IMG/VR virus record: IMGVR_UViG_3300028802_000007
Span: 66,936-130,935 of that record
DNA: 64,000 nucleotides
Direction: 5' to 3' (one strand)
DNA from: a virus
Positions 8,916 to 41,570 of the stretch are shown piece after piece. Position 1 is the stretch's first letter, and each line of letters starts with the position of its first letter. The notes below the pieces were generated by a model. It made no database searches. It saw only the letters and a program-made list of their open reading frames with translations, and was not told the DNA's origin. The position numbers and the translations under genes are program-made.

Positions 8916-10274
8916 TCAGTCAGTGTTCCCCGTCAGGACGGGCTCGATGGCGTCAGCCTTTGATGTCGGCTTGCCCTCACCCGCAGCGGGCTGCTGGTCG
9001 ATACCCGTGACTTCACGGGCGCTGGCGACCTCATCGATGGCGACCACACCAAGAGGCGTGTTCGCCATGAGGCGGTTGTAGGGGTTGTTGGGATCGATCG
9101 GATCTCCGAGCGGGAGACGGCCTTCGTCCAACCGCGCCTCGTTCACCGGCTTCCAAGGCATGCCTGCGAGCGCCAACTTGTTGATGTTGGCCTTTGACAT
9201 GGACTCCTTGATATTGAGCCGGGTGAAGCGGAACGCCAGGTTGTTGGCCGACCCTCCAAAGCTCTTGTCCCACACGATCTCACGCGTGAAGTAGTCCTGG
9301 ATGAGCGCGAGCAGGGGCCGGAGGCCCTGATCCTCGCTCATCTCCTGCTGGACTTCCCCGGTGGCACGGTTCACGTCGAACGTGACACCGATGTCCTGAG
9401 GGCTGATGAGGTACACCGCGCAGATCTTCCGCACGAGGTACTTCAGCCATTCGTCGTACTGCATATCGCGGTTCGACGGTCTGAATGGGATGAACTTCGC
9501 GCCCTTGGTGCCGCCCAGGAAGCCGAGTGCGCTGCGACCGGCGATTTCCGCCCGCCAGTAGGACTGGAAGGCCTCGACCTGGTCAGGCCGGGCTCCCTCG
9601 CCAAGATCGAACAGGCCGTCGGGAGCGGACTGCTCCACCTGACGGCGGTTGTACTGCGACCCTGTGACCTCTGCGTCGATGGTCATCTTGAGGGTCTCGA
9701 GCGGCGACAGGCCGAGCACCGAGTAGGTGCGCGGGTTCGCCATGATGTACATCATGTCGTCGTTCTTGAAGGCGATCTCCGTCTCCGGCACCGGCACCCA
9801 CCAGTAGCGCGTCTCGCCGGGGCTGCCGTCCCACCGTGCGTTGACCTTGATGCGGGCCCCGTCCACGGCGTGGAGGCCAGCAATCTGGCCGCCCAGGGTG
9901 CGTTCCTTCTCGATGACGCCTGCATCGAGCACGAGGATGTCCTCGATGATGGGCTCGACCCACGAGCGGAAGCTCTCGACCATCATGTTGGGCGAGATGA
10001 ACCGGTCGCGGATCTCCGCCTTGAGCGACTCGCTGACGTCCTCTTGGCCGTCGAACGGGACGATGTCCCACTCGGCGGAAGAGACCTGTGCCTTGCGGAT
10101 GCTGATGGCGGCCCGCACCCACTCTGAGTGCTCAGCCCAGTTGCGGAAGAGGGCGGACGTGGACTTCATGACCTTGCCGCGCTCTTGGAAGACGAAACCC
10201 CCGCCCGGCGAGGCAGGGATCGTCTTGGGGCTCGTCCTGTACGAGCGTGTGATGAGGTCGCTGATGACGCCCAT
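8916..10274 (-). CDS. phage portal protein (HK97-like)
   Basis: 452 aa; GLSPLE, DMQYDEW...ICAVYLISPQDIG, NEARLDEGRLPL; downstream of terminase. Confidence 0.9.
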   Translation of the reverse strand: MGVISDLITRSYRTSPKTIPASPGGGFVFQERGKVMKSTSALFRNWAEHSEWVRAAISIRKAQVSSAEWDIVPFDGQEDVSESLKAEIRDRFISPNMMVESFRSWVEPIIEDILVLDAGVIEKERTLGGQIAGLHAVDGARIKVNARWDGSPGETRYWWVPVPETEIAFKNDDMMYIMANPRTYSVLGLSPLETLKMTIDAEVTGSQYNRRQVEQSAPDGLFDLGEGARPDQVEAFQSYWRAEIAGRSALGFLGGTKGAKFIPFRPSNRDMQYDEWLKYLVRKICAVYLISPQDIGVTFDVNRATGEVQQEMSEDQGLRPLLALIQDYFTREIVWDKSFGGSANNLAFRFTRLNIKESMSKANINKLALAGMPWKPVNEARLDEGRLPLGDPIDPNNPYNRLMANTPLGVVAIDEVASAREVTGIDQQPAAGEGKPTSKADAIEPVLTGNTD

Positions 10275-10495
10275 TAGCCCAGCTTTCGGAAGTGCGCCGC
10301 GACGAAGTCCGCTCCAGCCTCGTTGAGGTGGTTGGCTTCCATCTGACGGTTCGCGGCGGTGATGGCCTCGTCGTATGTCATCGTGTGGGTCTCGATCTGG
10401 GCCATGATGTTGGCGAGGTACGCAGGCACGAGGCGCGTGCCGTCGCGGAACTCGACCTCGGTCTTCTGGCCCGGGAACACTAGGCCGTCTTCCAT
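10274..10495 (-). CDS. hypothetical protein
   Basis: Short ORF coupled between terL and portal. Confidence 0.55.
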   Translation of the reverse strand: MEDGLVFPGQKTEVEFRDGTRLVPAYLANIMAQIETHTMTYDEAITAANRQMEANHLNEAGADFVAAHFRKLG

Positions 10496-12006
10496 GACAC
10501 CTTCCCGGTCTTGTTCATGGAGCCGAAGAAGAAGCCCTCCGACGTGAGGTCCATCGAGTAGCCCAGAGCGTCCACGAAGTCGTCGTGGCCCTTGGGGAAC
10601 GACAGGAGCTCCGTCTCGAAGGCCGATCCGCGCAGGCTGATGTGGTGCTTGACCTTGTGGGCCTCGTACTTGGCCGCCACCCCTCGAGCTCGCGTCGTCT
10701 TCTCTCCGTCGGCCTTGCGTCCCTCAATCGGGATGTGCGGGTACTCCTCCATCGTGTTGTGGATGATGGTGCTCTGGGCCTGCACGCTCTCCACGATCAC
10801 CAGCCCGATGTTGGGGAAGGCCCGCCAGCCGTCGAGGATGAACTCGACGTGGTGGCTCTCGCGCTTGTCGCGGTAGGCTGACAGGACGTAGAAGAAGCCC
10901 CTGTTCGGGCAGCCGGCCTGGCAGGCGTCCTCGGCGGTCGTCGCCCGGGCTGTGAAGTCGGCCCGCTCGCGGGCGCTGAAGGCGAGGTCCACGCCCATGC
11001 GGAGGTTGTAGGTATGACCCTCTGGGAGCGTCTCAAAGTGCTCGAATGGGCCCTTGAAGATGTTGCCCTCGAGAAGCCCCGAGATGTCGTTCTGGTACGC
11101 GCACGAGAACAGCGCCGAACCCATCTCCTCGCGTTCACGAAGGAGGCGCTCGACCGGCCAGTACTCGGGCCAGTAGGACTTGAGGTCCCCCTTCTCGTCG
11201 GGCTGAAGCGCCGATACCACATGGCTCTCCCAGCCGAAACCGCCCTGAGCCGTCGGTGTGAAGAACTGCTCGTACAGGTCCGCTTCACCCCACCGCGTGC
11301 CGATGACGATGACCACCCCGTCAGGGGCTAGGCAGGGCTTGAGCGTCTTCTTGAACCAGGTCTCGACCGCCTCTCGCTGATCCACGGTCTGGGTGTTCTC
11401 CTCATCGAGGATGTCGTCCATCAGGATGATGTCGAAACGCTTGCTGATGATGGCCCCGCCCACGCCGACGGCGAAGCACGAGACGTCCTTGCTGCCGTGC
11501 CACCGGGAGCCTGAGCGCAGCCACTCCTTGTCGGTCCACTTACTGGCGGAGGGCCCGCACTCGGGGAAGATGTCCTTGTGGGCCGCGTTGGCCTCGTAGG
11601 TGTACTTGATGGCCCGGCTGAAGTCCTTGCCCTGCATGTCGGTGTTGGACACGAGGCCGACCCGCAGATCGGGGTACTTGGCGACCAGCCACGCCAAGAG
11701 GATGGTGTTGTTCCACGTCGTCTTGGCACCGCCTCGCGGCAGCAGCCACACGCCGTGGCTGCGGGCGTAGATGGCCTCGAGCGTCTGGCTGACCATCGCC
11801 CGGTGGTGGGCCGCCGGGAGGTAGCCGAAGACGGCCTCGCCATAGGCGAAGACCGCGTCTGGTCCGTCAGTTCGTGCGAGTTCTCTCAACGCGTGGGAGC
11901 GGAGAGCGTGCCACGTCTCCGGGGTCAGCTCCGCGCCCTCGAGAAGCTTCGACAAGGGCTCTGAGGAACTCGGGATCGTTTCCGGTAGAGGAGAGGCTGA
12001 TACCAA
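10480..12006 (-). CDS. terL: terminase large subunit (start uncertain, may be 20-40 codons downstream)
   Basis: LPRGGAKT Walker A, IILMDDI Walker B, IGTRW coupling motif, MGVDLA and HDDFVDALG nuclease motifs. Confidence 0.93.
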   Translation of the reverse strand: MVSASPLPETIPSSSEPLSKLLEGAELTPETWHALRSHALRELARTDGPDAVFAYGEAVFGYLPAAHHRAMVSQTLEAIYARSHGVWLLPRGGAKTTWNNTILLAWLVAKYPDLRVGLVSNTDMQGKDFSRAIKYTYEANAAHKDIFPECGPSASKWTDKEWLRSGSRWHGSKDVSCFAVGVGGAIISKRFDIILMDDILDEENTQTVDQREAVETWFKKTLKPCLAPDGVVIVIGTRWGEADLYEQFFTPTAQGGFGWESHVVSALQPDEKGDLKSYWPEYWPVERLLREREEMGSALFSCAYQNDISGLLEGNIFKGPFEHFETLPEGHTYNLRMGVDLAFSARERADFTARATTAEDACQAGCPNRGFFYVLSAYRDKRESHHVEFILDGWRAFPNIGLVIVESVQAQSTIIHNTMEEYPHIPIEGRKADGEKTTRARGVAAKYEAHKVKHHISLRGSAFETELLSFPKGHDDFVDALGYSMDLTSEGFFFGSMNKTGKVSWKTA

Positions 12007-12439
12007 GGTTTCGCTCCTCGGAGATGGTTGACGGCTTGCCGAAGAGGACCTGGAGACGGTCGATCAACTGCGCTACGTCTTGGGGTCGGATGACGACGAG
12101 CGGCTCTTCGACCCACTGGCCGTTGCGCTCGCGGGTGACGGTCCGCTTCATGTCGGAGCGCATCTTGCTGATGGCTTCATCGATGGCGTCGATGGCGTTG
12201 TCGCGGACCTTGACCTCTTTGGCGATCCGCCGGCCCTCGTCGTCAGCGAGGAGGGTCATGGCCTTTGACTGGGCGCGATCGCGGTAGTCCTCGCGCTTCT
12301 TGGCCCAGCCGCGCTTCTTGGACGCATCCATGATCATCGAGTGGGTGGACATGCCGTGGGAGTCCGCCAACTCGCGGAGGCTCATCTCACCCTGGATGTA
12401 TTCGAGCTCGAGAGCGTCGTAGTCCCACTTTCGGTTCAA
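11867..12439 (-). CDS. terS: terminase small subunit
   Basis: N-terminal HTH (WDYDALELEYIQGEMSLRELADSHG...KKRGWAKKR), directly upstream of terL. Confidence 0.75.
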   Translation of the reverse strand: MNRKWDYDALELEYIQGEMSLRELADSHGMSTHSMIMDASKKRGWAKKREDYRDRAQSKAMTLLADDEGRRIAKEVKVRDNAIDAIDEAISKMRSDMKRTVTRERNGQWVEEPLVVIRPQDVAQLIDRLQVLFGKPSTISEERNLGISLSSTGNDPEFLRALVEASRGRGADPGDVARSPLPRVERTRTN

Positions 12440-12771
12440 CGGATCTCCCTCGTCACCATGCCCGACGAACCGGGGATGGAGACCACGACTTCAACGATGC
12501 GGGGGTGCTCGAGGAGGAGGCGCTCGCAGATCCACGCCGCGATGCCGTCCAGACGCTCAGAGCCGCCATAGAGCATGTCCGACAGGGTATGGAGGTGCAG
12601 CGTGCGGGTGGTCGAGTACAGGTCGTCGTACAGCGTCAGGCATGGCCCGGCTAGGTCTGCGACCTCATCGACGGTGACGGTGAAGGTGTGGCCGTGGAGG
12701 TGCGGCCCCTCGCGCTCCGTGTCCCGGTGGGTGGAGTCGAAGGTGACCGTGGCGCGGGCGGTGGTGATCAA
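12436..12771 (-). CDS. QueD/6-pyruvoyl-tetrahydropterin synthase-like T-fold protein
   Basis: FDSTH...HLHGHTFTVTV...LHTLSD...IAAWICERL; TTG start after GAGGG. Confidence 0.7.
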   Translation of the reverse strand: MITTARATVTFDSTHRDTEREGPHLHGHTFTVTVDEVADLAGPCLTLYDDLYSTTRTLHLHTLSDMLYGGSERLDGIAAWICERLLLEHPRIVEVVVSIPGSSGMVTREIR

Positions 12772-12790
12772 GTTGCCCTCAGAACACACG

Positions 12791-12829
12791 AAAAAAGGGA
12801 CGGGCCGACCATTGCTGATCGACCCGTCC
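12791..12829 (-). terminator. intrinsic terminator
   Basis: Minus strand GGACGGGTCGATCA-GCAA-TGGTCGGCCCGTCC-CTTTTTT: 14-bp stem whose two G-U pairs form only on the minus strand, GNRA loop, U tract. Confidence 0.85.
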
Positions 12830-12912
12830 ATTCGGGAACCGGAACTCGCTGCGACCTGTCTGCTGGAGGTCAACCAAAAGAGCAGGGGGCGCGAGTCGGT
12901 AAGACCCTATTC
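12791..12912 (-). ncRNA. candidate trans-acting sRNA with an anti-RBS loop (UGGUUGACCUCC)
   Basis: Intergenic; long hairpin 12900-12838 with a 16-nt loop complementary to the GGAGGTCAACCA start motif, followed by the terminator; 5' end is a guess. Confidence 0.6.
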
Positions 12913-12953
12913 AGTTGTACCACGCGCACAGTACAGGGCGCGTGCTCTGTTTG

Positions 12954-13232
12954 CTAGGTGTCCCGGTCGTCTTCAGGGACGTTTGTGTCGATGAAGCGGT
13001 CGGTTTCGACGGAGTAGCGCCAGTCGATCGTGTACGCGGCAGGCGGCAGGAGGGTCACCGATCCGTCCGCCAAGACGACCACCGCCAAGAGTGTTTTGGC
13101 GGGTGGTCGCTTTTGACTATCGAACTGTTCGAGCGTGAAACCCAGAAGCATCCCGACCGGGTGGTCGGTTTCGACCGGATAGCGGTCGGGTCGGAGGGTC
13201 ACCCGGAGCGGTTCATCGAAGAGAGCTGTCAC
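12954..13232 (-). CDS. hypothetical protein
   Basis: Coupled ORF in the leftward block. Confidence 0.6.
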   Translation of the reverse strand: MTALFDEPLRVTLRPDRYPVETDHPVGMLLGFTLEQFDSQKRPPAKTLLAVVVLADGSVTLLPPAAYTIDWRYSVETDRFIDTNVPEDDRDT

Positions 13233-13600
13233 ATCTTCCCCTTGATGGTGAACGTGCCCTTGTCCACCTTGTAGACCTTGTTCTTGTTGCTGAAGGACGT
13301 CACGTCCATGAAGTCGCGCTCGAACTCGATGGACACGATCTTGTCGGTCGAGATGACCAGCACGTCACGATTGGGCATCTGGATCGTGATCAGCGTTGGC
13401 GGCTCGTTCACGCTGATAGGCGAGGACTCGAGCTCGATGTGCCGCTTTGGCTTCTGCGATGGCGCGAACGTCAGACTCGTCGGGGACGGCGAGATGCGGA
13501 GCGAGTCCCGCAGGGCGTTCGACTCTCGCGTCGTGAAGCCACGACCCTTTGAAGTCCGCCCAGATCTGGACTCCGCAGACTTGGCACTTCGAGGAGCCAT
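13229..13600 (-). CDS. hypothetical protein
   Basis: Coupled ORF. Confidence 0.5.
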   Translation of the reverse strand: MAPRSAKSAESRSGRTSKGRGFTTRESNALRDSLRISPSPTSLTFAPSQKPKRHIELESSPISVNEPPTLITIQMPNRDVLVISTDKIVSIEFERDFMDVTSFSNKNKVYKVDKGTFTIKGKM

Positions 13601-13603
13601 GGC

Positions 13604-13816
13604 TCACCTGATCCCCGCGCACCTGGCGCACAGCAGGGGGCTCTTGATGATGTCGCCCAGGCCGACGTAGTACAGGACCCGGCGGTTCTCGCAGGCGGAG
13701 CACTTCCCCCGGTGCTCCCTGTTGAGGCTGATGGACACGGTCATGGTCAGCGGCCCCCAGTTGGTGCTGACCGGCGACAGACCGGCGGGGACCTGGCCGG
13801 GCGCTCCGACAATCAC
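13604..13816 (-). CDS. small Zn-finger protein
   Basis: CSAC...CARC. Confidence 0.55.
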   Translation of the reverse strand: MIVGAPGQVPAGLSPVSTNWGPLTMTVSISLNREHRGKCSACENRRVLYYVGLGDIIKSPLLCARCAGIR

Positions 13817-14115
13817 GCCTTCACCCTCGTCTTGCTGCTCTTGCGCGGGGCGGGCTTGGGCACCGCCCGGACCGGGTTGTAGGGGATGGCTGCCGGAGCT
13901 CCGGTCGCGGTCGTGATTGTCGTAGTCCCACTGGTGAAGCTATGCGTCTGCTCCAGCGGGGTGGCTGACGTGAACTTGACCTGTGGTCCCGCGATCGCTT
14001 CGCGGGCCGCATGGGCCACGAACGACGACACGCTCATGCCGTGGTCGAGGCAGTAGTGACGAAGCGATTTCCAGTCCTCGTCGTCCAGGTAAAAACTATG
14101 CTGACGGACAGTCAC
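13813..14115 (-). CDS. ribbon-helix-helix-like DNA-binding protein
   Basis: RQHSFYLDDEDWKSLRHYCLDHGMSVSSFVAHAAREA fits the RHH pattern; RBS AAGGAGG. Confidence 0.65.
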   Translation of the reverse strand: MTVRQHSFYLDDEDWKSLRHYCLDHGMSVSSFVAHAAREAIAGPQVKFTSATPLEQTHSFTSGTTTITTATGAPAAIPYNPVRAVPKPAPRKSSKTRVKA

Positions 14116-14127
14116 AGGCCGTCCTCC

Positions 14128-14418
14128 TTATCTATCTTCTGCTTGGAACTGTTCGATGCCGCCGACTGGCGGCTCGTGCTTGTCGATGTGGGTGTGCTCC
14201 TCGAGCCGCTGCACGCGGCCCTCAAGGTCTGACGTGCGGCGATCTTCGTATTCGAGGGGGCCGATCCCACCGCCCAAGACGATGGCCTCAGGAGTCGCGC
14301 CCGGGTTCTTGGCCCACCACTCCTTCCAGTACTGGCCGATGGCGTCGAGCTGAGCTGGCGTGATGTCCGGGCCAGCGTCGAGAACGTAGCGGTCGTCGGT
14401 CAGGCGGATGAGCTTCAT
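14128..14418 (-). CDS. hypothetical protein
   Basis: Likely start MKLIRLTDD coupled to the upstream stop. Confidence 0.55.
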   Translation of the reverse strand: MKLIRLTDDRYVLDAGPDITPAQLDAIGQYWKEWWAKNPGATPEAIVLGGGIGPLEYEDRRTSDLEGRVQRLEEHTHIDKHEPPVGGIEQFQAEDR

Positions 14419-14629
14419 CACCACCCCCGCGACGGCGCGAGGAACGCGTCGTCCTTCATCTGCCAAGAACCGGTCCCACTCATGGCGAAGGCTTCGGCGT
14501 GCTTTTTGCACAGGTCGAAGTGGAGATTGGCCCCCGGGGCGTGCGGCTCCGTCAAGACCATGAAGTGATGGATCTGGAAGATGGCAGCGTCAACACAGCC
14601 CTCGACATCGCACACGAGGCTCTCGAGCT

Positions 14630-14803
14630 TCACGACGCGATCACCTGGTCGATGCTCTTGGTCACGCGCTCAAGGATGGGCAGCGGGTCGATGTCTGCCT
14701 GGAGCAGCCCGAAGCCATCGAGCAGGATGTCGGCCCGCACCGACGCCCTGACCTCCTCGAGGGCCTCGCGCCTGATCTCTTCCTTGGTCTGTCGCTTAGC
14801 CAC
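14630..14803 (-). CDS. hypothetical protein (57 aa)
   Basis: GTG start directly after AAGGAGGTCAACC; below the ORF-track cutoff. Confidence 0.6.
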   Translation of the reverse strand: MAKRQTKEEIRREALEEVRASVRADILLDGFGLLQADIDPLPILERVTKSIDQVIAS

Positions 14804-15140
14804 GGTTGACCTCCTTGAGCGAGTTGCGGACCTGTTCGGCTAGACCGCCGGGCTTATTGTTCTCGGTGAAGTGCCAGGCATCGACGATCGCCGGGTCCGC
14901 CTGGACCACGAAGTCGTAGAACCGCTGGTACTCAGAAGGAGTCGCGTCATGCGCCGTCGGATCGCTCTTGCCATCGCTCTTGGTCTGTCCCTCCTCGCCG
15001 CCCTCGCTCCTGTTGTCGAGGCTGGCAAGGTCTTTGGCGGAAAGGTGTTCTAGGCCCCTCTCAACGCGAAGCCGGTTCAGGGCGCGGGTGGCGGCGATGA
15101 ATGCCGCCTCCGCATCCTCCAAGTCGCGGTAGTAGCTCAC
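14796..15140 (-). CDS. hypothetical protein
   Basis: GTGA-coupled ORF. Confidence 0.55.
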   Translation of the reverse strand: MSYYRDLEDAEAAFIAATRALNRLRVERGLEHLSAKDLASLDNRSEGGEEGQTKSDGKSDPTAHDATPSEYQRFYDFVVQADPAIVDAWHFTENNKPGGLAEQVRNSLKEVNRG

Positions 15141-16299: not shown

Positions 16300-16824
16300 C
16301 TAGACGGCGGTCTTGGACGACTTGGTGGTGGTCGTCCGGTCCGTGATCTGGCGATCGACGGTGACCGTCGGGAGGCGCTCGAGGATCTGGCCCATCAGGT
16401 CCTTGAGGTAGCCGACCTCCTGATTGAAGCGGGCCTCGCGGAAGTCCATCTCCTTCTTGAACGCCTCGCGCTCCGTGGCGAGGTTCTCGGTCTTGACCTC
16501 GAGGACGGCCTCCTTGCGGGCCTGCTCGATACCGGCGAGGGCCTGCTCAGCCTCGAACTCCTGACGCTTGCGCTCGAGGCCGACCATGTGGGTCACCTCG
16601 CGCTTCTCGCGTGCGTTCGTCTCGACGATCCGGTCCTTGTCGATGTTCAGCTTGGCGATCTGCTCGCGGAGGACGTTCGCCTCCGTGGTGAGCTCCGTCT
16701 CCTTGCCACGCGCCTTGAGCGTCGCCTCGAGCTTGGCGATCTGTGCCGTCAGGTCGAGGACGGTGTCGGTGAGCTGCGCCTCCAGCGCCTCGCGCTTACT
16801 CGGTGTGCGATCGAAGATGCCCAT
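16300..16824 (-). CDS. coiled-coil hypothetical protein
   Basis: GGAGGTCAACC-ATG start; long charged helical heptads. Confidence 0.75.
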   Translation of the reverse strand: MGIFDRTPSKREALEAQLTDTVLDLTAQIAKLEATLKARGKETELTTEANVLREQIAKLNIDKDRIVETNAREKREVTHMVGLERKRQEFEAEQALAGIEQARKEAVLEVKTENLATEREAFKKEMDFREARFNQEVGYLKDLMGQILERLPTVTVDRQITDRTTTTKSSKTAV

Positions 16825-17122
16825 GGTTGACCTCCCTTTCGGATGAGTCTGCCGCGACCGGCGGCCCGGGTTCTTGCCCTAGGTGATGAGCTTGGCGAGC
16901 AGGAGCACGCCGAAGCCGACGATGGCGGACCAGCCGACCATAGACTGGCCCTGGCTGCGGAACTCCTCGACAACGGCCAGGAAGACCGCCACGAGCAGGC
17001 CAAGGATCACGATGGTGTCGTTCACGGGAACCTCCAACTATTCGCCCCGCTCCCCCAAGCCATCTCGCTGACCAGGGCCGGCTAAGCGCGAGAGCCATGC
17101 CTTCGCCTCAGGGCGTCGTCGT

Positions 17123-18398: not shown

Positions 18399-18635
18399 TC
18401 ACCACAGCCTCCGCCTCTTCGTCTGTGGGAGGGGCATATGGAACCTCTCCCAGCGGTTCCGAAGATCGGCCATCCGACGATCCCACTCAGGCGTGTGAGC
18501 CACACCCTCCTTCTGCCTCTCGAGATAACGCGCCAGCAAGTCAATCTCCCTGTCCGTCAACGGCCCGCGTTCGGTGTACGGAACATCATCTGGGTCCACC
18601 GGCGGCCTGTACTGGCGCGAGATCTCATCAGTCAT
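18399..18635 (-). CDS. hypothetical protein, first gene of the leftward early block
   Basis: AAGGAGGTCAACCCATG start. Confidence 0.65.
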   Translation of the reverse strand: MTDEISRQYRPPVDPDDVPYTERGPLTDREIDLLARYLERQKEGVAHTPEWDRRMADLRNRWERFHMPLPQTKRRRLW

Positions 18636-18657
18636 GGGTTGACCTCCTTCTCGCCGT

Positions 18658-19200: not shown

Positions 19201-19507
19201 GGTCGCAGACACCCCCTGTGCTGGGGTGACGCATGGAGGTCAACCATGACTCACAAGGCCCGTGTTATCGCGGCGAGCAAGGCCCGTCGCTACCCACCCT
19301 GCGACGACTGCGGCAAGGTCGTCGCCCTTGAGGGTCACGCCTGTGACCTCAAGCCCCTCGCCCGATGACCGCCATCCTCGACGCCATCGACCGCCTCCCG
19401 ACCATGGTCTGGGCGCTGGTCGTCATGCTGTCGGCGTGGGCCATCATCGCCTTCGCCTTCGCCCTGATGGTCGGCACCTACCTCGCCATCGGCGAACTGG
19501 TCGCGGC

Positions 19508-20033: not shown

Positions 20034-20627
20034 ATGAAGGTCTTGGTCGTCTGTGAGTACAGCGGGCGCGTCAGGGACGCGTTCAGGGCTGAGGGGCACG
20101 AGGCCATCTCGTGCGACCTCCTGCCCACTGAGGTCCCCGGGCCTCACATCATCGGGGACGCCCTTGAGGCGATCCGCGCTGAGAAGCCCGACCTCCTCAT
20201 CGCCCACCCGCCCTGCACCTACCTCGCCAACTCAGGCGTCCGGTGGCTGTACGGCGGCAAGGGCACCACCATCGACCCGGTCCGCTGGGCGCAGATGGTC
20301 GAGGGCGCGGCCTTCTTCAAGGCCCTCCTCAACGCCGACGTCCCGATGGTCGCGGTCGAGAACCCGGTGATGCACGGCTTCGCCCGGGACCTCATCGGCC
20401 AGCGGGCCAACCAGTTCATCCATCCGTGGCAGTTCGGCCACGGCGAGCAGAAGTCCACAGGGCTCTGGCTCCGTGGTCTGCCCCTCCTGACCCCGACCGA
20501 CGTGGTCGAGGGCCGGGAGCAGCGGGTCTGGCGGATGGGTCCGTCGGCTGACCGCTGGAAGGAACGCAGCCGCACGTTCAGCGGCATCGCGGCTGCCATG
20601 GCAGCCCAGTGGGGAGGTCAGCGATGA
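20034..20627 (+). CDS. short phage-type DNA cytosine methyltransferase
   Basis: KVLVVCEYSGRVRDAF, SCDLLP, LLIAHPPCTYL (catalytic PC), AVENP, RSRTFSGIAAAMAAQWG. Confidence 0.8.
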   Translation: MKVLVVCEYSGRVRDAFRAEGHEAISCDLLPTEVPGPHIIGDALEAIRAEKPDLLIAHPPCTYLANSGVRWLYGGKGTTIDPVRWAQMVEGAAFFKALLNADVPMVAVENPVMHGFARDLIGQRANQFIHPWQFGHGEQKSTGLWLRGLPLLTPTDVVEGREQRVWRMGPSADRWKERSRTFSGIAAAMAAQWGGQR

Positions 20628-21984: not shown

Positions 21985-22037
21985 CCCTCACGGCTGGCCC
22001 CCACTGGGAGCCAGCAGCGAGTGCCAGATGGGTGCTC
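21982..22037 (+). repeat. cassette-boundary repeat, copy 4
   Basis: Stem GCTGGC..GCCAGC. Confidence 0.9.
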
Positions 22038-22056
22038 TAGCAACAGGAGGTCAACC

Positions 22057-22563
22057 ATGGCAAGCAAGTACCCCGACGTCGGGTCCTACAAGGCCTCGCC
22101 GGACAACCGCGACATCGCCCGTCGGGTCGAGTGCGACTTCGTCGCCAGCGGATCGGGCTCCTACTACAGCCGCGCATGCTCCAACCTCGCGGCGTGGGTC
22201 AGGGTCTACCGCCACAAGGACGGCACGGTCACCACGACCAGCGACCTCCGGTGCCACCGCCACCGCGCCATCGATGAGCGCACCGCCACCAACCGCAAGT
22301 GGTCGAGCCAGTTCAACGCCGACGGCTCGTCCAACCTCATGTTCCCCCAGTTCGACCCGTTCGACGGGATGGCTGCGGCCAAGCGTCTGATCCGCGAGGA
22401 ACAGGCCAGGTTGCAGGAGGCCCGCCTCGCGGCCATCAGCGAGAAGGTCGCGGAGGCCGCCGCCTACATCACAGCCCACATCGTCGGGCTGGACGAGGAG
22501 ACGGTCGGCTCCCTCAACGCCATCCACGCCATGGCGACCCTTGGAACGCTGGTGGTCCGGTGA
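22057..22563 (+). CDS. hypothetical protein
   Basis: AGGAGGTCAACCATG start. Confidence 0.7.
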   Translation: MASKYPDVGSYKASPDNRDIARRVECDFVASGSGSYYSRACSNLAAWVRVYRHKDGTVTTTSDLRCHRHRAIDERTATNRKWSSQFNADGSSNLMFPQFDPFDGMAAAKRLIREEQARLQEARLAAISEKVAEAAAYITAHIVGLDEETVGSLNAIHAMATLGTLVVR

Positions 22564-22853: not shown

Positions 22854-22904
22854 CCCTCACGGCTGGGGCTGACGGCCCCAGCAGCGAGTGCCAGATGGGC
22901 GCTT
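22851..22904 (+). repeat. cassette-boundary repeat, copy 5
   Basis: Stem GCTGGGGC/GCCCCAGC. Confidence 0.9.
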
Positions 22905-22924
22905 GGGATCGCAGGAGGTCAACC

Positions 22925-23311
22925 ATGGACAAGGCACAGGTCAAGGTCATCCACGAAGAGGTCAGCGAGGCCATCAGGACCGTCTACGCCAAGCACGGCC
23001 TGACCATCACCAGCGACCGCGCCTCCTACGGCGAGGCGGAGTTCAACATCAGCGTCAAGGCCATCAGCACCAAGGCTGAGGATCAGGCCAAGACGTGGGC
23101 ACAGTACGCACCGGTCTACGGCCTCCCCGTCGATGGCTTCGGTCAGTTGGTCACCATCAACCGCCAGCAGTACGTCATCACCGGGCTCGACCTGAACCGT
23201 CGAGGCTACGTCGTCCGGGTGAAGAACCTAGGCACCGGCAAGGTCAGCCTGTTCAAGGCCGATGCGATCCGGCGGGCACTCGCCCTCATCGACATCAGCA
23301 GCCCCGCCTGA
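22925..23311 (+). CDS. hypothetical protein
   Basis: AGGAGGTCAACCATG start; stop is in copy 6. Confidence 0.75.
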   Translation: MDKAQVKVIHEEVSEAIRTVYAKHGLTITSDRASYGEAEFNISVKAISTKAEDQAKTWAQYAPVYGLPVDGFGQLVTINRQQYVITGLDLNRRGYVVRVKNLGTGKVSLFKADAIRRALALIDISSPA

Positions 23312-23364
23312 CCCTCACGGCTGAGGCCTCGCCGGCCTCAGCAGCGAGCGCCATGTCGGCACTC
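23309..23364 (+). repeat. cassette-boundary repeat, copy 6
   Basis: Stem GCTGAGGCC/GGCCTCAGC. Confidence 0.9.
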
Positions 23365-23382
23365 AAGTACAGGAGGTCAACC

Positions 23383-23625
23383 ATGAGCCCCATCGAACTG
23401 GCAGAGCGTCTGGGCCAGAGCCCCGACCTCGACAACCGGGCAACAGGTGTCGCCATCATCGTGCGCGGCCTGTGCGACGACGACGGCGATCGCATGGGCT
23501 GGCCGATGACCGCAGCGGTCGTGGCCCGTGCGGCCAAGCACATCGGTGTCGAGCCCACAGCCGAGCTGGTGGAGGCGGTCCTCGAGCTCGCCCCGATCCT
23601 GCCCGACTTCTACCTCAACCGATGA
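23383..23625 (+). CDS. hypothetical protein
   Basis: AGGAGGTCAACCATG start. Confidence 0.65.
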   Translation: MSPIELAERLGQSPDLDNRATGVAIIVRGLCDDDGDRMGWPMTAAVVARAAKHIGVEPTAELVEAVLELAPILPDFYLNR

Positions 23626-25288: not shown

Positions 25289-25648
25289 ATGGGCATCACC
25301 TACGAAGAGGTGGACAAGTACTGGGACTCGACCATCGCCCGCCTCAAGGCGGAGTTCCCGGCGGAGTGGAGCATCACCGGCTACAAGGGCCATGGCACCC
25401 GCGACGGCGTGGCCTGGGTCGCCAAGCTGCGCCGCAACGGCAAGGTCGTCGGCTCTCTCGAAGACTCCGGTGTCGGTGGGTCGGTCTTCATCGACTTCTG
25501 GACGAAGGTCGGCAACTCCATCGACTACGGCCACAACAGCGAGGACGCCAAGGCGTGGGCCGCTGCGATCGCAGCCGCGCTGCCCGACGAGAAGATCGAG
25601 CCTGACCAGATGGTCATCGAGGCCCTCCTCCAGCGAGCCGGCAAGTGA
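25289..25648 (+). CDS. hypothetical protein
   Basis: AAGGAGG RBS after repeat copy 8. Confidence 0.7.
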   Translation: MGITYEEVDKYWDSTIARLKAEFPAEWSITGYKGHGTRDGVAWVAKLRRNGKVVGSLEDSGVGGSVFIDFWTKVGNSIDYGHNSEDAKAWAAAIAAALPDEKIEPDQMVIEALLQRAGK

Positions 25649-26337
25649 AGGTTCTCGACCTCTACTCCGGTCTGGGCGGCTGGTCACAGCCAGCCCTCGA
25701 CGCCGGTCACGAGGTGGTCAGGGTCGAGTGGGACAAGCGCCTCGCGGCTGAGGTGCCCAACACCATTCAGGCCGACATCACCGAACTGACGGCGACCGAT
25801 CTCCTCAACATGTGCGACGGCAAGCCCGACCTGATCCTCGCCTCGCCTCCCTGCGAGTCGTGGTCGGTCATGGTCCTGTCACGCAACTGGTTCCCCGACT
25901 ACACACCCAAGAGCCAGCGTGCGGTCGAGGCCATCCTCATGGTCAGCCACACACTGGAGTTGATCCACCAGCTCGACCCTGCCTTCTGGGTCATGGAGAA
26001 CCCACGCGGCATGATGCGGAAGCATCCGGTGGTCGCCGGGCTGGAGCGTCGGACCATCACCTACTGCCACTACGGCGAGCAGCGCATGAAGCCGACCGAT
26101 CTGTGGTCGGACCGCTGGCCCGCCAGCCTCACCCTCGCACCGGCGTGCAAGAACGGCGACCCCTGTCACGTCCGCGCACCTCGCGGCTCGATGACCGGGA
26201 CCCAGGGCATGAAGGGCGACCGCAACGGCTACTGGACGAAGTCCCTCATCCCGTACCCGCTGGCACGCGACGTCACCGACGCCGTCTGCCGCGACCTAGA
26301 GGCGGGCCACGTCGGCTCCAACCTCACGCTCTGGTAA
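25645..26337 (+). CDS. DNA cytosine (C5) methyltransferase
   Basis: KVLDLYSGLGGWS (motif I), ADI, LILASPPCESWS (motif IV), VMENPRG (motif VI). Confidence 0.85.
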   Translation: MKVLDLYSGLGGWSQPALDAGHEVVRVEWDKRLAAEVPNTIQADITELTATDLLNMCDGKPDLILASPPCESWSVMVLSRNWFPDYTPKSQRAVEAILMVSHTLELIHQLDPAFWVMENPRGMMRKHPVVAGLERRTITYCHYGEQRMKPTDLWSDRWPASLTLAPACKNGDPCHVRAPRGSMTGTQGMKGDRNGYWTKSLIPYPLARDVTDAVCRDLEAGHVGSNLTLW

Positions 26338-26348
26338 GGAGGTCAACC

Positions 26349-26594
26349 ATGGCTATCACGATGCGCTCGTCTGATCGCGCTGAGGTCATCCGCGAGATGG
26401 CCCGGGAGCTCCTCGCGAAGGCGGACTTACTGGACGGCACCTCGCCGTGCGTCTGCGGACACCTCCGCCAGAACCACGATCCGGCGGGCTGGAACGAGGG
26501 CTGGTGCAGCGGTGCCCAGACCACGCGGCGACCCAAGAACCAGATCATCGCCGCCGACGGCGACTGCAAGTGCGAGGAGTTCGAGGCATGGTGA
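26349..26594 (+). CDS. Cys/His-rich hypothetical protein
   Basis: AGGAGGTCAACCATG start; CVCGH...H...C...CKC. Confidence 0.6.
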   Translation: MAITMRSSDRAEVIREMARELLAKADLLDGTSPCVCGHLRQNHDPAGWNEGWCSGAQTTRRPKNQIIAADGDCKCEEFEAW

Positions 26595-27371
26595 GAGAGC
26601 GAACACTGGCTGAGTACCGCGAAGCGATGGCCGCAGACAGCAACGCCTCGTTCTACGAGGAGCGCCGCCTCAACTTCCTGATCCTCGCCCTGCCTGACGG
26701 CCACCTTGGCACGGGGGAGATTGTCAGCGTCTCCTTCCGCGAGGGCATCGACTTCATCGATGAGGACTGGCCTGAGTTCGGCAACTTCCTCATCTTGGAG
26801 ACGGCATGAAGACCAACGGACCGAAACTCGTCGGTGACTGGCGTCGCCGTCGCGGCTCCAAGACCGACGCCCACCTGTTCGACGGATCGGGGCACCACCC
26901 GTTCGACCAGCGACCGATGTGCGGCAAGGCCATCCGCCACATGAGCACCGAACCGGCGACGCTCTGGACGGGCACGCCCATCAGCCGGTCAGGCTCGTTC
27001 TGGGCGCTGCCCTGCACGGAGTGCCTCGTTCAGGCCATCACCCGCCAGCGCAAGGAGGTCAACCATGCCTGAGACACGACGCATCAAGGCCACCTACTAC
27101 CCGGTGCGCCAAGCACACCCACGCCGGACCGACTGGGCCAGGGTCGCCCTGTTCATCGCTGGCGGCATCGTCGCCGCGATCGCGGTCTGGGCCTTCGTCG
27201 CCCTGTTCCTCGTGACGTTCTGATGTGCGGCAGGGAGGACGACCCGTCCATGACTGACGTCTGCACCCGCTGCGGGCATCCCGCCACCGACCATGGCGGC
27301 GGCCCCGGCGAGGGCGAGTATCCCGATCTGCCGTGCGACTGCGGCTGCGACCGCTGGACGGAGGAGGGCTG

Positions 27372-36704: not shown

Positions 36705-36731
36705 TACTATGACACGATAGGAGGTCAACCC

Positions 36732-37013
36732 ATGGCAGAGATTGTGATCCGCATCCAGGTGCCCGACGGCACCAACGTCCGCGTCGATCAGGGCGGTGGC
36801 TCCGACAAGCCGTTCGTCCAGCGACCGGCCCCGCCTGAGCCCAACGATGGTGGCTGCCCCACCCACGAGGTGGCGTGGAAGCTGGTCCCGGCGGGCGTGA
36901 GCAAGAAGACCGGGCGTCAGTACAACGCCTTCTGGGCGTGCCCGGAGCGCGGCTGCGACGAGAAGCCGTCGTGGGACGATAGCGCCCCCGGTGGTGGCGA
37001 CCTTCCCTTCTGA
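36732..37013 (+). CDS. Zn-ribbon protein with SSB-like acidic tail
   Basis: CPTH...GVSKKTGRQYNAFWACP...C, ends GGGDLPF; GGAGGTCAACCCATG start. Confidence 0.6.
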   Translation: MAEIVIRIQVPDGTNVRVDQGGGSDKPFVQRPAPPEPNDGGCPTHEVAWKLVPAGVSKKTGRQYNAFWACPERGCDEKPSWDDSAPGGGDLPF

Positions 37014-37014
37014 G

Positions 37015-38751
37015 GTGGACCTGACCCATGCCTCCTTCTTCAGCGGAGTGGGAGGCGTTGACCTTGGGCTTGAGCGAGCTGGATGGAGAACCGTCTCCAC
37101 CAGCGAAGTCGATCCCTACGCCAACGCCGTCCTCGCCCACCACTGGCCGGACGTCCCGAACCTCGGAGACATCGTTGCTCTCGCCCACGCTGAGGGTGGG
37201 GCCCAAGAACAACCGGCAGGGCAGCACGTCAGCGATGCAGCCGGTCATCCTGACTGGTGGGACGCCACCCTCTGGTCAGGAGGGTTCCCCTGTCAGGATC
37301 TCTCCGTTGCGGGCAAGCGCCGTGGCTTCGCGGGCGATCGCAGCAGCCTCGCCTTCGCCTTCCTGGACCTCGTTGGAGTTCACCGACCTCGAGCCATCCT
37401 TCTCGAGAACGTCCCCGGTCTCCTCTCCAGTCATGGGGGCCGAGACCTTGGGGCTCTCCTCGGTGCGATGGTCGAACTCGGGTACGGCGTGGCGTGGCGC
37501 GAGCTCGACGCTAAGCACTTCGGCGTGCCCCAGCGCCGACGACGGATCTTCCTCCTTGGTCTGCGAAGCGAGGCCGACGACCCTGACGGACGTGTTGCAG
37601 CCGACCGCGCCGCTGCGGTTCTCGCTGTCGGCACGCGCTGCGACAGGCATCCTGCGCCGGGCTGGAAGAAGGGGACGGTCCCTGCCAGCGGACCTCGAAG
37701 AGGCGCTTCACTCGTTGGGGGAGGAAACTCCGCCCCCCAGTCCCAGCGCGTCTTTGGCACCGACGGTGAGTCCCCTGCGCTCAGCGTCCAGAACCGCTAC
37801 GGAGGACCCCAAGCCCCAGCCGTCCACGTCGGCAGCCTCCAAGTCGGAAGCGGACCCGGAGGTGGCTGGCGTGTCGGAGCCGACGAGGCAGGGGCCGGGC
37901 ACGTCATCGTTGGTCCGCCGTCTGACGCCGGTGGAGTGCGAGAGGCTGATGGGGTGGCCGGACGGCTGGACGATCGCGCCGGGGTGGTTAGAGCGTTCAC
38001 GAAAAGCCGCCGCGCCCAGACCGACCACGACCACGAGACGTGGGTCGAAGGCGACGCCACCCCCACCCTGAATGGCTTCGACTCGTCCGCCGTCCGGGCG
38101 ACCACCGTCATCAGCCAGTCCCTCGACCAGAAGAACGGCGGTGTCGATGACAACGAGGCCCAGTCTGGCCTAGCCATGGGCGGTGGCATCATGGACGATC
38201 CGCTCCTGCCCACTGGGCTCGACTCCAACCGCTATCGGTGCTGCGGCAATGGTGTCGTCGCCCCGGTGGCGGAGTGGATCGGGGCCAGGCTCGCCGCCTA
38301 CCTGAACCAGAGCCCGTGGGTGGTCGTGCCCAAGGGCAACAAGGCCGCCGTGGCTCTGGCCGACGGGCACTACAGCCGCCGCAAGGTGGGCAGCCCGCAG
38401 TTCATGCCACCCGGCCAGACGCTGGTCCTCATCACGCCCGACGACAAGGCCGTCTTCGGCTGGTGGCGTCCGCACCCTGACTCTGGCATCAAGCAGATGA
38501 ACGGCCTCGATGGCTGGACATGCACCATCTTCCGCAACACCGGACCGCAGCGGTCGAGCGACCTGATCCTCGCCGCCGAGAAGGAGCTCCTCGAGAGGTA
38601 CGACGTGGGCCCGGACGGCCTGCTGACCTACGTCTGGGACAAGAAGGTCGAGTCAGTCAACCCGGGCTACTGCTTCAAGGTCGCCGGGTGGAAGCGCATC
38701 GGGCGATCGCAGGACGACCGCAAGACCTTGCTCCAGAAGAGGCCAACATGA
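37015..38751 (+). CDS. C5 DNA methyltransferase alpha chain fused to a C-terminal Mom/GNAT-like domain
   Basis: SFFSGVGGVDLG, GGFPCQDLS, LLENVPG, PQRRRRIF, RYRCCGNGV; then HYSRR..QFMPPG..CTIFRN..LTYV..NPGYCFKVAGW. Confidence 0.85.
   Translation: MDLTHASFFSGVGGVDLGLERAGWRTVSTSEVDPYANAVLAHHWPDVPNLGDIVALAHAEGGAQEQPAGQHVSDAAGHPDWWDATLWSGGFPCQDLSVAGKRRGFAGDRSSLAFAFLDLVGVHRPRAILLENVPGLLSSHGGRDLGALLGAMVELGYGVAWRELDAKHFGVPQRRRRIFLLGLRSEADDPDGRVAADRAAAVLAVGTRCDRHPAPGWKKGTVPASGPRRGASLVGGGNSAPQSQRVFGTDGESPALSVQNRYGGPQAPAVHVGSLQVGSGPGGGWRVGADEAGAGHVIVGPPSDAGGVREADGVAGRLDDRAGVVRAFTKSRRAQTDHDHETWVEGDATPTLNGFDSSAVRATTVISQSLDQKNGGVDDNEAQSGLAMGGGIMDDPLLPTGLDSNRYRCCGNGVVAPVAEWIGARLAAYLNQSPWVVVPKGNKAAVALADGHYSRRKVGSPQFMPPGQTLVLITPDDKAVFGWWRPHPDSGIKQMNGLDGWTCTIFRNTGPQRSSDLILAAEKELLERYDVGPDGLLTYVWDKKVESVNPGYCFKVAGWKRIGRSQDDRKTLLQKRPT
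37235..38071 (+). CDS. overlapping alternative-frame beta chain of the C5 methyltransferase (start uncertain)
   Basis: LTDVLQ..RFSLSARAATGILRRAGRRG..LP..LEEAL and motif IX RRLTPVECERLMGWPDGWT lie in this frame, not the main frame. Confidence 0.75.
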   Translation: MQPVILTGGTPPSGQEGSPVRISPLRASAVASRAIAAASPSPSWTSLEFTDLEPSFSRTSPVSSPVMGAETLGLSSVRWSNSGTAWRGASSTLSTSACPSADDGSSSLVCEARPTTLTDVLQPTAPLRFSLSARAATGILRRAGRRGRSLPADLEEALHSLGEETPPPSPSASLAPTVSPLRSASRTATEDPKPQPSTSAASKSEADPEVAGVSEPTRQGPGTSSLVRRLTPVECERLMGWPDGWTIAPGWLERSRKAAAPRPTTTTRRGSKATPPPP

Positions 38752-39865: not shown

Positions 39866-39984
39866 CCAGTGGTGCGTAGAAGAGGGGTACTTCGAGTGCC
39901 AGGCCCCGCAAGGGGTCAGCCGGACACTCAACCGGCAACCCGCCGCAAGGCGGTTCGTTCCCTTCCTCGACTTGTTCTCACTGG
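39866..39984 (+). ncRNA. Y-RNA-like module 5 (non-tRNA insert, two GCAA-capped hairpins)
   Basis: CCAGTG-GTGCGTA..GGGGTACTTC..TTGTTCTC-ACTGG. Confidence 0.75.
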
Positions 39985-40004
39985 TACACCGACAGGAGCT
40001 TCGA

Positions 40005-41570
40005 ATGGTCAAGCTCGCCGCCCGCACGAAGCGGGCTCCCAAGGCACCGGTCACGTCCACCAAGGGCCGGAAGCCGGACACCCTCACCTACAACGCAGGC
40101 GCAGGGTTCTCCCGTGAAGCCAAGTCGGAGCTGTTCCTCCTGTCCGTGACCAACATGGTCAGCGAGGACACCTTCTACGAGCGCGGCAAGAACCGTGACA
40201 AGCGGTTCGTGGACCTCATCCGTCAGGTCGCCCTCGAAGATCCCGACTGGGTCGCCCGGCTTGTGCCCTACCTCCGCGACACGATGAACATGCGATCCGC
40301 ATCCATCGTGATGGCGGCTGAGCTGGTGCATGCCAAGCTGACCCGTCCCGTCGGTCCCGGCACGATCAAGAACCGCGACATCATTGCGTCCGCAATCAAG
40401 CGGGCGGATGAGCCGGCGGAGATGATCGGCTACTGGATGTCCGAGTGGGGCAAGGCCCTGCCGCAGCCGGTGAAGCGCGGCATCGCTGACGCGGTCGTGC
40501 GCGTGTACAACGAGCGGTCCCTGATCAAGTACGACGGTGGCGACAAGGCCATCCGCTTCGGTGATGTCATCGACCTCACCCACCCGGAGGCCAAGGCCCC
40601 GTGGCAGTCGGCTCTGTTCAAGTACGCCATCGATGACCGCCACAAGCGGGACATCCCGATCTTGGAGCGTGCTGAACTCGGCCTGGTCTGGGCCAACGAG
40701 GGTGCGATGTCGCTCGACACCGACGCCTTCCGCGCTGCCTTCACGCCTGAGTTCGTGGCGGCGGCTGGCCTGACGTGGGAGCAGGCGTCGTCCAAGTACG
40801 GCAAGCTCGACGCGAAGTTCTGGGAGGCGATGATCCCCTCGATGGGCATCTTCGCCATCGTGCGGAACATCCGCAACTTCGAGGACGCCGAGATCAGCGA
40901 GGCCGCCGCCGACCTGGTCCGGGCCAAGCTCAAGGACGAGGAGACCATCCGCAAGTCGCGGATGTTCCCGCTCCGGTTCATGGCCGCGTACACCGCGACC
41001 AAGAGCCTGACGTTCGCCCGCGAGCTCGAGGCCGCGATCGACCTCGCCACCTCCAACGTGCCTGCCCTGACGGGCAAGACGCTGGTGATGGTGGACATCT
41101 CCGGCTCCATGGACGCGGCGCTGTCCGCCAAGTCGGACGTCAAGCGGCTTGCCGTGGCGTCCATCTTCGGTGCGGCTCTCGCGATCCGGGCGGAGAAGGC
41201 CGACCTCGTGGCGTTCTCGGACACCACGGCGGTCATCCCGGTCCGCAAGACGGACTCGGTGCTGCGGACGGTGGCTGCCCTCGTGCAGTCCCTGCCGCAC
41301 GGTGGCACCCAGACGTGGCAGGCGGTGCAGCGCACCTACACCGACCACGACCGGATTGTCATCGTGACCGACGAGCAGGCCAACGCAGGCTACGCGGGGA
41401 CGACCCTCCCTGAGGACGCCCGCGTCTACACCTTCAACGTGGCTGGCTACCGTGCCGGTCACGGCCCGTCGGGCAAGAAGGGGTGGTACACGTTCGGTGG
41501 GCTGACGGATGCGGGCTTCACCGCCATCGAGCTCCTCGAGCGAGGGAACGACCAGACCTGGCCGTTCTGA
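40005..41570 (+). CDS. rsr: Ro60/Rsr ortholog (TROVE + vWA domains)
   Basis: KSELFLL..TFYE..YLRDTMNMRS..RADEPAE..LPQPVKRGIADA..KYD..DVIDLTHP..TWE..RNIRN..SRMFPLRF; vWA MIDAS VDISGSM, GGT, IVTDEQ. Confidence 0.95.
   Translation: MVKLAARTKRAPKAPVTSTKGRKPDTLTYNAGAGFSREAKSELFLLSVTNMVSEDTFYERGKNRDKRFVDLIRQVALEDPDWVARLVPYLRDTMNMRSASIVMAAELVHAKLTRPVGPGTIKNRDIIASAIKRADEPAEMIGYWMSEWGKALPQPVKRGIADAVVRVYNERSLIKYDGGDKAIRFGDVIDLTHPEAKAPWQSALFKYAIDDRHKRDIPILERAELGLVWANEGAMSLDTDAFRAAFTPEFVAAAGLTWEQASSKYGKLDAKFWEAMIPSMGIFAIVRNIRNFEDAEISEAAADLVRAKLKDEETIRKSRMFPLRFMAAYTATKSLTFARELEAAIDLATSNVPALTGKTLVMVDISGSMDAALSAKSDVKRLAVASIFGAALAIRAEKADLVAFSDTTAVIPVRKTDSVLRTVAALVQSLPHGGTQTWQAVQRTYTDHDRIVIVTDEQANAGYAGTTLPEDARVYTFNVAGYRAGHGPSGKKGWYTFGGLTDAGFTAIELLERGNDQTWPF

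Follow-up and report, generated by a model that had tools for sequence, protein, structure and literature searches.

A covarying hairpin between the early genes and the late operon of an uncultured soil phage mirrors a shared ribosome-binding tag

The final 64 kb (positions 66936-130935) of a 130,935-bp viral contig, IMG/VR record IMGVR_UViG_3300028802_000007, carries a structured element on its minus strand, from 12791 to about 12920. We refer to these 64 kb, the whole stretch of DNA that was analysed, as the window. The tip of the element displays the exact complement of an 11-nt ribosome-binding motif, here called the tag, that stands before the start codons of about ten small genes. The element would encode a structured RNA of roughly 115-130 nt and it lies between leftward early genes and the late packaging and head operon. 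We favour, with a probability of about 0.55, the reading that the late-operon leader supplies an anti-ribosome-binding-site (anti-RBS) RNA that represses the early genes bearing the tag. We infer its promoter, its transcript ends, its pairing in vivo, the direction of its effect (repression) and its timing from sequence.

The tag, GGAGGTCAACC, contains the Shine-Dalgarno (SD) core GGAGG. It has 11 exact matches in the window against 0.07 expected, and none of 100 shuffled sequences reached 11. A start codon (ATG or GTG) follows ten of the 11 copies, eight of them directly and two after one base, and all ten are oriented with their gene. They lie within 14.8-36.7 kb, outside the packaging and tail blocks, and are split between the strands, with seven on the plus strand, opposite to the hairpin RNA, and three on the same strand as it. 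The tagged open reading frames (ORFs) are 40-174 amino acids (aa) long and none has a Pfam or PHROG family. The ten exact matches at start sites are:

14804..14814, minus strand: tag directly before the GTG of a 57-aa ORF (14630-14803)
16825..16835, minus strand: tag directly before the ATG of a 174-aa ORF (16300-16824)
18637..18647, minus strand: tag 1 nt before the ATG of a 78-aa ORF (18399-18635), the first gene of the leftward block
19235..19245, plus strand: tag before the ATG of a 40-aa ORF (19246-19368), the first gene of the rightward block
22046..22056, plus strand: tag before the ATG of a 168-aa ORF (22057-22563)
22914..22924, plus strand: tag before the ATG of a 128-aa ORF (22925-23311)
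23372..23382, plus strand: tag before the ATG of an 80-aa ORF (23383-23625)
26338..26348, plus strand: tag before the ATG of an 81-aa ORF (26349-26594)
27054..27064, plus strand: tag before the ATG of a 52-aa ORF (27065-27223)
36720..36730, plus strand: tag 1 nt before the ATG of a 93-aa ORF (36732-37013)

The eleventh copy (12865-12875, plus strand) is different. No ATG, GTG or TTG follows within 39 nt, no plus-strand gene uses it, and it is antisense to the flanking minus-strand genes. An initial annotation of this DNA, made from the sequence alone, had described the ten start sites and the orphan antisense copy in the same way, and both descriptions hold. It had also proposed that a whole early regulon shares the tag. 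A tag shared by small ORFs is indeed present, but the marked set comprises about 10-14 of them, and the genes for methyltransferase, Erf, exonuclease and primase have no tag. Copies with one mismatch, each also before a start codon, are found at 1334, 24234, 24643 and 27988; the one at 1334 (minus strand) precedes the gene at 1332, in the structural block. Upstream of three plus-strand tags stands a repeated element, CAGCGAGTGCCAGATGGGTGCTC with its variants (22006-22045, 22874-22913 and 23332-23371); it forms a weak hairpin and has the 8-mer CAGCGAGT in common with the 3' arm of the leader hairpin. A possible common promoter motif around CTAGTAC was also considered and set aside, as its copies are too few to judge.

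The minus-strand genes that begin near 18.6 kb end at 12954, and the 182-nt gap after them holds the element. Read from 5' to 3' on the minus strand, its parts are:

12921..12944, minus strand: inverted repeat CACGCGC (12944-12938) / GCGCGTG (12927-12921), flanking a -10-like box, directly after the stop codon of the upstream gene (12956-12954)
12928..12933, minus strand: -10-like hexamer TACTGT (TANNNT), candidate leader promoter, proposed from its conservation
12908..12920, minus strand: conserved block GTACAACTGAATA, near-invariant alignment columns; the RNA 5' end or a second -10-like box, TACAAC (12919-12914)
12834..12907, minus strand: long imperfect hairpin, GGG to CCC, from folding and covariance-model alignment
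12865..12876, minus strand: invariant 12-mer UGGUUGACCUCC, the complement of GGAGGUCAACCA (SD, spacer and first base of AUG)
12867..12873, minus strand: 7-nt apical loop UUGACCU, closed by G-C, G-C and then a covarying pair
12791..12829, minus strand: predicted intrinsic terminator, with a stem-loop at 12829-12798 (14 pairs) and a T6 run at 12796-12791

The minus strand folds at -73.4 kcal/mol (z = -5.14), and none of 200 shuffled sequences was as stable, whereas the plus strand of the same region gives z = -1.75, no better than many shuffles. The hairpin, its strong terminator, the complementarity of the loop to SD, spacer and first AUG base, the boxes TACTGT and TACAAC and the inverted repeat had all been noted in the initial annotation and were recovered. 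The 16-nt loop that it described has to be redrawn. The open loop is 7 nt long, and because its YUGG and CCRR flanks pair in every relative, the 12-mer is half loop and half apical stem. A search of the window against Rfam returned no family at the gathering threshold, and no tRNA was found in it. In a permissive Rfam scan of 12650-13050, the sole sub-threshold match was to sX14, on the other strand, with 18.4 bits against a threshold of 80.

The element is conserved well beyond the window, among uncultured phages. On the contig itself, two phage genomes of about 75 kb, related yet distinct, follow one another head to tail; the second is cut at 56 kb, and identity over the parts that align is 67-86%. 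The contig may be a chimeric metagenome assembly that merged two strains, or the tandem may be genuine. The second genome has the same element with a compensatory change, from CUGCU/AGCAG to CUACU/AGUAG. A protein-anchored search with the 111-aa ORF that follows the terminator retrieved seven IMG/VR loci with 53-90% amino-acid identity, and the hairpin with the 12-mer at its tip was present in all six that extend far enough upstream. A DNA pattern search that demanded the terminator half alone, and not the loop, returned 53 loci. Among these, 33 carry UGGUUGACCUCC unchanged, two are homologous leaders without it, one is cut off and 17 are unrelated chance matches, so that the 12-mer is unchanged in 33 of the 35 homologous leaders that could be assessed. 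Separately, locus L011 in genome G001 (45 kb, 55% GC) was dropped, since it matched the 18-mer by chance within unrelated sequence.

A covariance model was built from 12 leaders. It finds one copy in the window (12785-12923, 89 bits), recovers every full-length homologue supplied and matches none of the 17 unrelated loci. The model-based alignment comprises 28 distinct sequences; being fitted to the model it leans towards it, and in it 89.9% of cells pair, against 36-56% with slid partners, while a plain MAFFT alignment already reaches 85%. Double-sided changes occur in 20 of 34 pairs of the model-based alignment. Its covariation score is 0.361 against 0.04-0.10, a value that none of 500 shuffles reached. 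RNAalifold on plain MAFFT alignments yielded the apical stem and the terminator alone; the middle stems emerged with the covariance-model alignment. Across the 28 sequences every cell of the terminator stem (100%) is paired, including G-U pairs that on the other strand would be mismatches, although its U-tract is weaker in several relatives. The pair that closes the apical loop covaries (UA in 13, CG in 11, UG in 4). The U of UGG never varies though its partner switches between G and A, which suggests a constraint on the sequence beyond structure. All 28 leaders have a TANNNT hexamer at the aligned position (TACTGT, TAGGCT, TAGTCT, TAGGGT or TACGCT), 5-8 nt ahead of the conserved block. At the place of the inverted repeat some relatives have another repeat and others have none. 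The 5' arm of the hairpin is pyrimidine-rich in relatives, with more CUCC-type words (GCUCC, CUCUCC) upstream of the 12-mer, and is better conserved than the 3' arm. Taken as a reading of aligned sequences, a conserved, structured and covarying RNA element on the minus strand is well supported.

These results bear on two simpler views of the orphan copy. It might have matched by chance, or be what remains of a plus-strand gene start since lost, though nothing speaks for this beyond the bare possibility. With 0.07 copies expected per window, no start codon within 39 nt, and a 12-mer that 33 of 35 leaders keep unaltered as the stems around it change, we find this scarcely credible. The 11-mer might instead act as DNA, with a phage protein binding it as double-stranded DNA at all copies or with the hairpin region forming part of a pac or cos site. 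The element does lie just upstream of terS, a common pac location, and for the comparable start-associated sequences (SAS) of mycobacteriophages the accessible text of Pope et al. (2011; PMC3203893) leaves open whether RNA or protein is the recogniser. Such a site would not need a place at the tip of a covarying hairpin. The remaining copies are strictly gene-oriented and stand 0-1 nt before a start, which fits RNA and not DNA. In the covarying stems, G-U pairs, which are A-C mismatches on the other strand, occur on one strand only, and the plus strand folds like many shuffles. A DNA-level role is accordingly very improbable in our judgement.

Loop and tag occur together. The 10-mer GGAGGTCAAC is the commonest in the genome of the window, in G006 (77 kb, complete) and in G013 (38 kb), and it is not the commonest in G011 or G012. 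The presence of the 12-mer in the leader and the number of exact tags, which leaves out the hairpin copy in every genome, are as follows:

Window: 12-mer in leader, yes; exact tags, 10
Second genome on the contig: 12-mer, yes; exact tags, 5
G006: 12-mer, yes; exact tags, 7 (6 with ATG or GTG within the next 4 nt)
G013: 12-mer, yes; exact tags, 7
G007: 12-mer, yes; exact tags, 4
G008: 12-mer, yes; exact tags, 2
G011 (67 kb, 94% complete): 12-mer, no; exact tags, 0
G012 (74 kb, complete): 12-mer, no; exact tags, 0

The leaders of G011 and G012 are homologues (39 and 44 bits), and neither genome has another RBS word in excess. This joint presence and absence supports a link between loop and tag without proving it. 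At the homologous tip of G011 (locus L076, about 53113-53311) stands GGUAGACCUGC, with 9 of 11 bases as in the invariant loop; it may be either a decayed or an ancestral form. A further stretch, CCCGAAUGGACGGG (12823-12836, minus strand), comprises the linker and the 5' half of the terminator and is near-invariant, G011 and G012 included, which is unusual for a terminator stem; its conservation is due in part to how the search was built. It could also form a small alternative hairpin, CCCG/CGGG.

The RNA that we propose would have a short 5' tail, one long hairpin that displays UGGUUGACCUCC at its tip, and then the intrinsic terminator. It may arise as a terminated leader from a -10-only promoter just upstream, as the tail of early leftward transcripts or as the head of late transcripts. 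About ten small early mRNAs carry the private tag GGAGGUCAACC(A), with which the tip of the RNA would base-pair. The 12-bp duplex of 12-mer and tag is calculated at -21.7 kcal/mol, and opening the apical stem costs about 6.7 kcal/mol. Because this duplex extends over SD, spacer and the start codon's first base, it would block ribosomes and shut off translation of the tagged genes as a group. As seven of the ten tags are on the other strand, the action would be largely in trans. In each case of origin the RNA would rise with transcription into the late region, so the group would be shut off as late transcription rises, which fits an early-to-late switch. The 3' end of 16S rRNA carries the short motif GGAUCACCUCC, and the loop GGUUGACCUCC resembles it with two changes that are mirrored by the tag. 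Some phages may operate a private SD/anti-SD pair, in which a set of early genes has a bar-coded ribosome site and a hairpin at the head of the late transcript mimics the 16S rRNA 3' end, with two changes matching the bar code of the tag exactly. The late RNA may then out-compete ribosomes for tagged messages and turn the whole class off once late transcription begins. We put this forward tentatively, at a little less than even odds.

Three of the tags are on the same strand as the hairpin and upstream of it, and a contact in cis is conceivable there. As the 3' tail of the leftward early transcript, the tip could touch the tags at 18637, 16825 and 14804 and limit translation or stabilise the message. 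No terminator is predicted within 12954-14500, so far as the scan of that interval goes. The tag at 14804 is preceded (14815-14825, minus strand) by AACTCGCT/AACUCGCU, the complement of AGCGAGTT/AGCGAGUU in the 3' arm of the hairpin. This extra 8-mer match is possibly a second contact with the hairpin, and it is seen in the window's own group alone. With seven of the ten tags on the opposite strand, most contacts would be in trans regardless. Pairing in cis is in our view an improbable account of the element.

About 20 nt separate the end of the terminator from the first late gene, so that the late genes would be reached by read-through, and the element would then be the leader of the late operon. 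It may be solely that, namely a cis-acting leader or attenuator at whose tip a phage factor binds for late read-through, with the likeness to the tag being secondary. Transcription starting at a promoter there, or arriving from the early genes, would then run into the terminator. The layout would be that of the lambda late leader, in which pR' is followed by the 6S RNA and tR' and read-through is brought about by Q antitermination. As in lambda, promoter-like boxes are followed closely by a short leader, whose strong terminator lies right ahead of the first late (packaging) gene. The distance to the first late gene leaves no room for a further promoter, here and in all relatives. Two -10-like boxes stand in tandem, and CCCGAAUGGACGGG is strongly conserved even in the tag-less G011 and G012, in part by construction of the search. 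Unlike in lambda, a scan of the 20 ORFs around the element, most of them without any family, gave neither a Q-like gene nor another family of antiterminators, and Rfam gave no match that would point to a put-like RNA; control of read-through is postulated. To our knowledge, lambda 6S RNA has no loop that mirrors a target. When the loop or the 5' arm was blocked in silico, the terminator stayed intact in five of five leaders, so the tip has no evident structural role in termination; control of the terminator by tag pairing was rejected on the same thermodynamic ground. A role purely in cis also leaves unexplained why the tip is an exact, invariant 12-nt complement of the genome's top over-represented word and why loop and tag are gained or absent together. 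It is the chief rival of the anti-RBS reading, and as the whole explanation we regard it as unlikely. The leader role and the anti-RBS role are compatible and could coexist.

An anti-RBS RNA of this kind would have several known counterparts. Trans-acting small RNAs with C/U-rich loops mask the SDs of several mRNAs, as do RsaE and RNAIII of Staphylococcus and the 6C RNA of actinobacteria. Like these, the element is small and structured, with a terminator and a pyrimidine-rich apical loop whose CCUCC is complementary to many SDs. YUNR is the U-turn motif of antisense loops, and the loop start UUGA fits it. Unlike RsaE, RNAIII and 6C, the 12-nt seed matches a phage-private tag, so that targets are marked by design and not by a generic SD, and the candidate RNA is phage-encoded, placed in a late-operon leader and known from sequence alone. 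Phages also use antisense RNAs that block ribosome sites. Examples are c4 of P1 and P7, sar of P22 and OOP of lambda, each of which acts on one nearby message and is mostly encoded opposite or next to its target. Here, too, the loop of a phage RNA would pair with a ribosome-binding region to time expression, but a single loop would reach about ten genes, dispersed over both strands, via the shared tag. A parallel in non-coding RNAs of Pseudomonas phage PAK_P3, supposed to mirror early RBSs, was considered and, as the texts consulted did not confirm it, dropped.

The tag itself has its closest likeness in the SAS of Cluster K mycobacteriophages (Pope et al., 2011; PMC3203893, accessible text) and of Microbacterium cluster EF phages (Jacobs-Sera et al., 2020; PMC7302621). 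The tag and the SAS alike are private, asymmetric motifs of 11-13 nt with an SD core; their near-identical copies, about 10-19 in number, share one orientation and stand a few nt ahead of the start codons of non-structural genes. The repeated element before some of the tags recalls the extended SAS (ESAS) of Cluster K. The sequences differ (GGAGGTCAACC here, GGGATAGGAGCCC and GGGAAAGGACCCC there), the phages are unrelated, and the tag stands 0-1 nt from the start codon while SAS are 3-7 nt away. Judged by these sequences, the tag is an analogue and not a homologue of the Cluster K and EF SAS. The function of SAS is still termed unknown in the accessible text of papers from 2024-2025. The accessible text of Pope et al. 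(PMC3203893) also records one reverse SAS copy in Cluster K1 phages and leaves it uninterpreted. Anaya has 16 forward SAS and one reverse, and Adephagia too has a single reverse copy. In both phages the reverse copy forms the loop of a GC hairpin, GCGCGG[CCUCCUAUC]CCGCGC, and this anti-SAS loop is kept in five K1-type phages. The reverse SAS of Adephagia falls within the gap between genes 92 and 93, where, in the accessible text of PMC11373665, 'late transcription appears to initiate'. By analogy, the Cluster K1 mirror hairpin at the place where late transcription begins is an independent parallel to the element of the window. Ahead of the anti-SAS hairpin, in the gap before the last right-arm genes, a TAGACT box and a strong hairpin are invariant in 10 of 10 aligned Cluster K phages (Anaya, locus L108, 39750-39950; Adephagia, locus L109, 3560-3760). 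They are likely the late promoter and leader. The word 'antisense' is absent from PMC3203893 and PMC12699233, and the accessible text of the literature that uses 'start-associated sequence' holds no antisense-RNA proposal for SAS. Masking of ribosome sites by base-pairing RNAs and SAS are both well known; a link between them is not found in the literature searched.

Several points weigh against a repressor RNA that acts on the tagged genes. A sigma-70 promoter scan of the region gave no site. The sequence is found in 24 DNA runs, from soil and other metagenomes, and in no RNA run. The need for read-through past the element to reach the late genes is a further point, since its position would be explained by a role in cis alone. 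Scanning for duplex energy with a 23-nt probe gave 1551 windows at or below -14 kcal/mol, and unrelated sites score like tags in this GC-rich genome. G011, G012 and the tag-bearing clade are three about equally distant lineages (terL 55-59% identical), so the joint pattern of loop and tag may reflect one evolutionary event. The loop never varies where the tag exists, and only joint presence and absence, not true covariation, can therefore be scored. Among the Cluster K phages, Pixie has no anti-SAS at the homologous place, the loop of Yuna is deleted, and the loops of Unicorn, Krueger and Fefferhead are degenerate. In the Microbacterium phage AnnaSerena there are 10 SAS in forward orientation and none in reverse at a match of at least 11/13; its sole same-strand match to the anti-SAS 10-mer (9/10) is inside a DnaE-like gene. 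Tags without a mirror copy thus exist (Pixie, Yuna, AnnaSerena), and their primary function must be independent of such an RNA. The mirror, where present, looks like an added control.

The genes around the element agree with its placement at the head of a late operon. After the gap, the minus strand continues with the 111-aa ORF and then terS, terL and portal, assigned by PHROG and Pfam matches:

12436..12771, minus strand: first gene past the terminator, 111 aa, with a TTG start 19 nt beyond the T-run
8916..12439, minus strand: late packaging genes
11867-12439, minus strand: terS
10480-12006, minus strand: terL
10274-10495, minus strand: small ORF between terL and portal, listed by position
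8916-10274, minus strand: portal

The initial annotation had called the neighbour queD-like. The ORF is present, but its match to PTPS/QueD is sub-threshold (E = 0.08, 13.4 bits against a cut-off of 22.4). A preQ1 or other riboswitch before this ORF was considered; it is unsupported by Rfam, and the ORF itself is a sub-threshold PTPS. The G+C content of the window is 65%. Among cultured phages there was no megablast match, and the top tblastn matches of terL are less than 30% identical. The loop-plus-terminator pattern had no match among genome contigs in a search for prophages. Three DNA methyltransferase genes lie on the plus strand (20034-20627, 25645-26337 and 36991-38751), two with a Pfam C5 cytosine methylase match and the third with a PHROG match only. 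The window also encodes an Erf recombinase, a PD-(D/E)XK exonuclease and an AEP-type primase with an AAA helicase. A Ro60-like protein with TROVE and vWA domains (PHROG 'RNA-binding protein') is encoded at 39972-41570 on the plus strand, and Rfam finds no Y RNA anywhere in the window. The element was considered as a Y RNA for this phage Ro60/TROVE protein and rejected: it has no Rfam match, and G006 has the hairpin yet no TROVE match.

If the proposal is true, one 12-nt RNA address would reach a whole temporal gene class, giving these phages a compact post-transcriptional shut-off of early genes. Frequent tags without mirrors, as in AnnaSerena, limit the generality of a mirror-RNA explanation. 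An orthogonal translation switch might also be built on the design. The single reverse SAS of Cluster K1 would be explained by the same logic, and SAS, unexplained since 2011, would gain a testable function. The SAS puzzle would thereby be open to experiment in the tractable phages Adephagia and Anaya and their host Mycobacterium smegmatis mc2 155.
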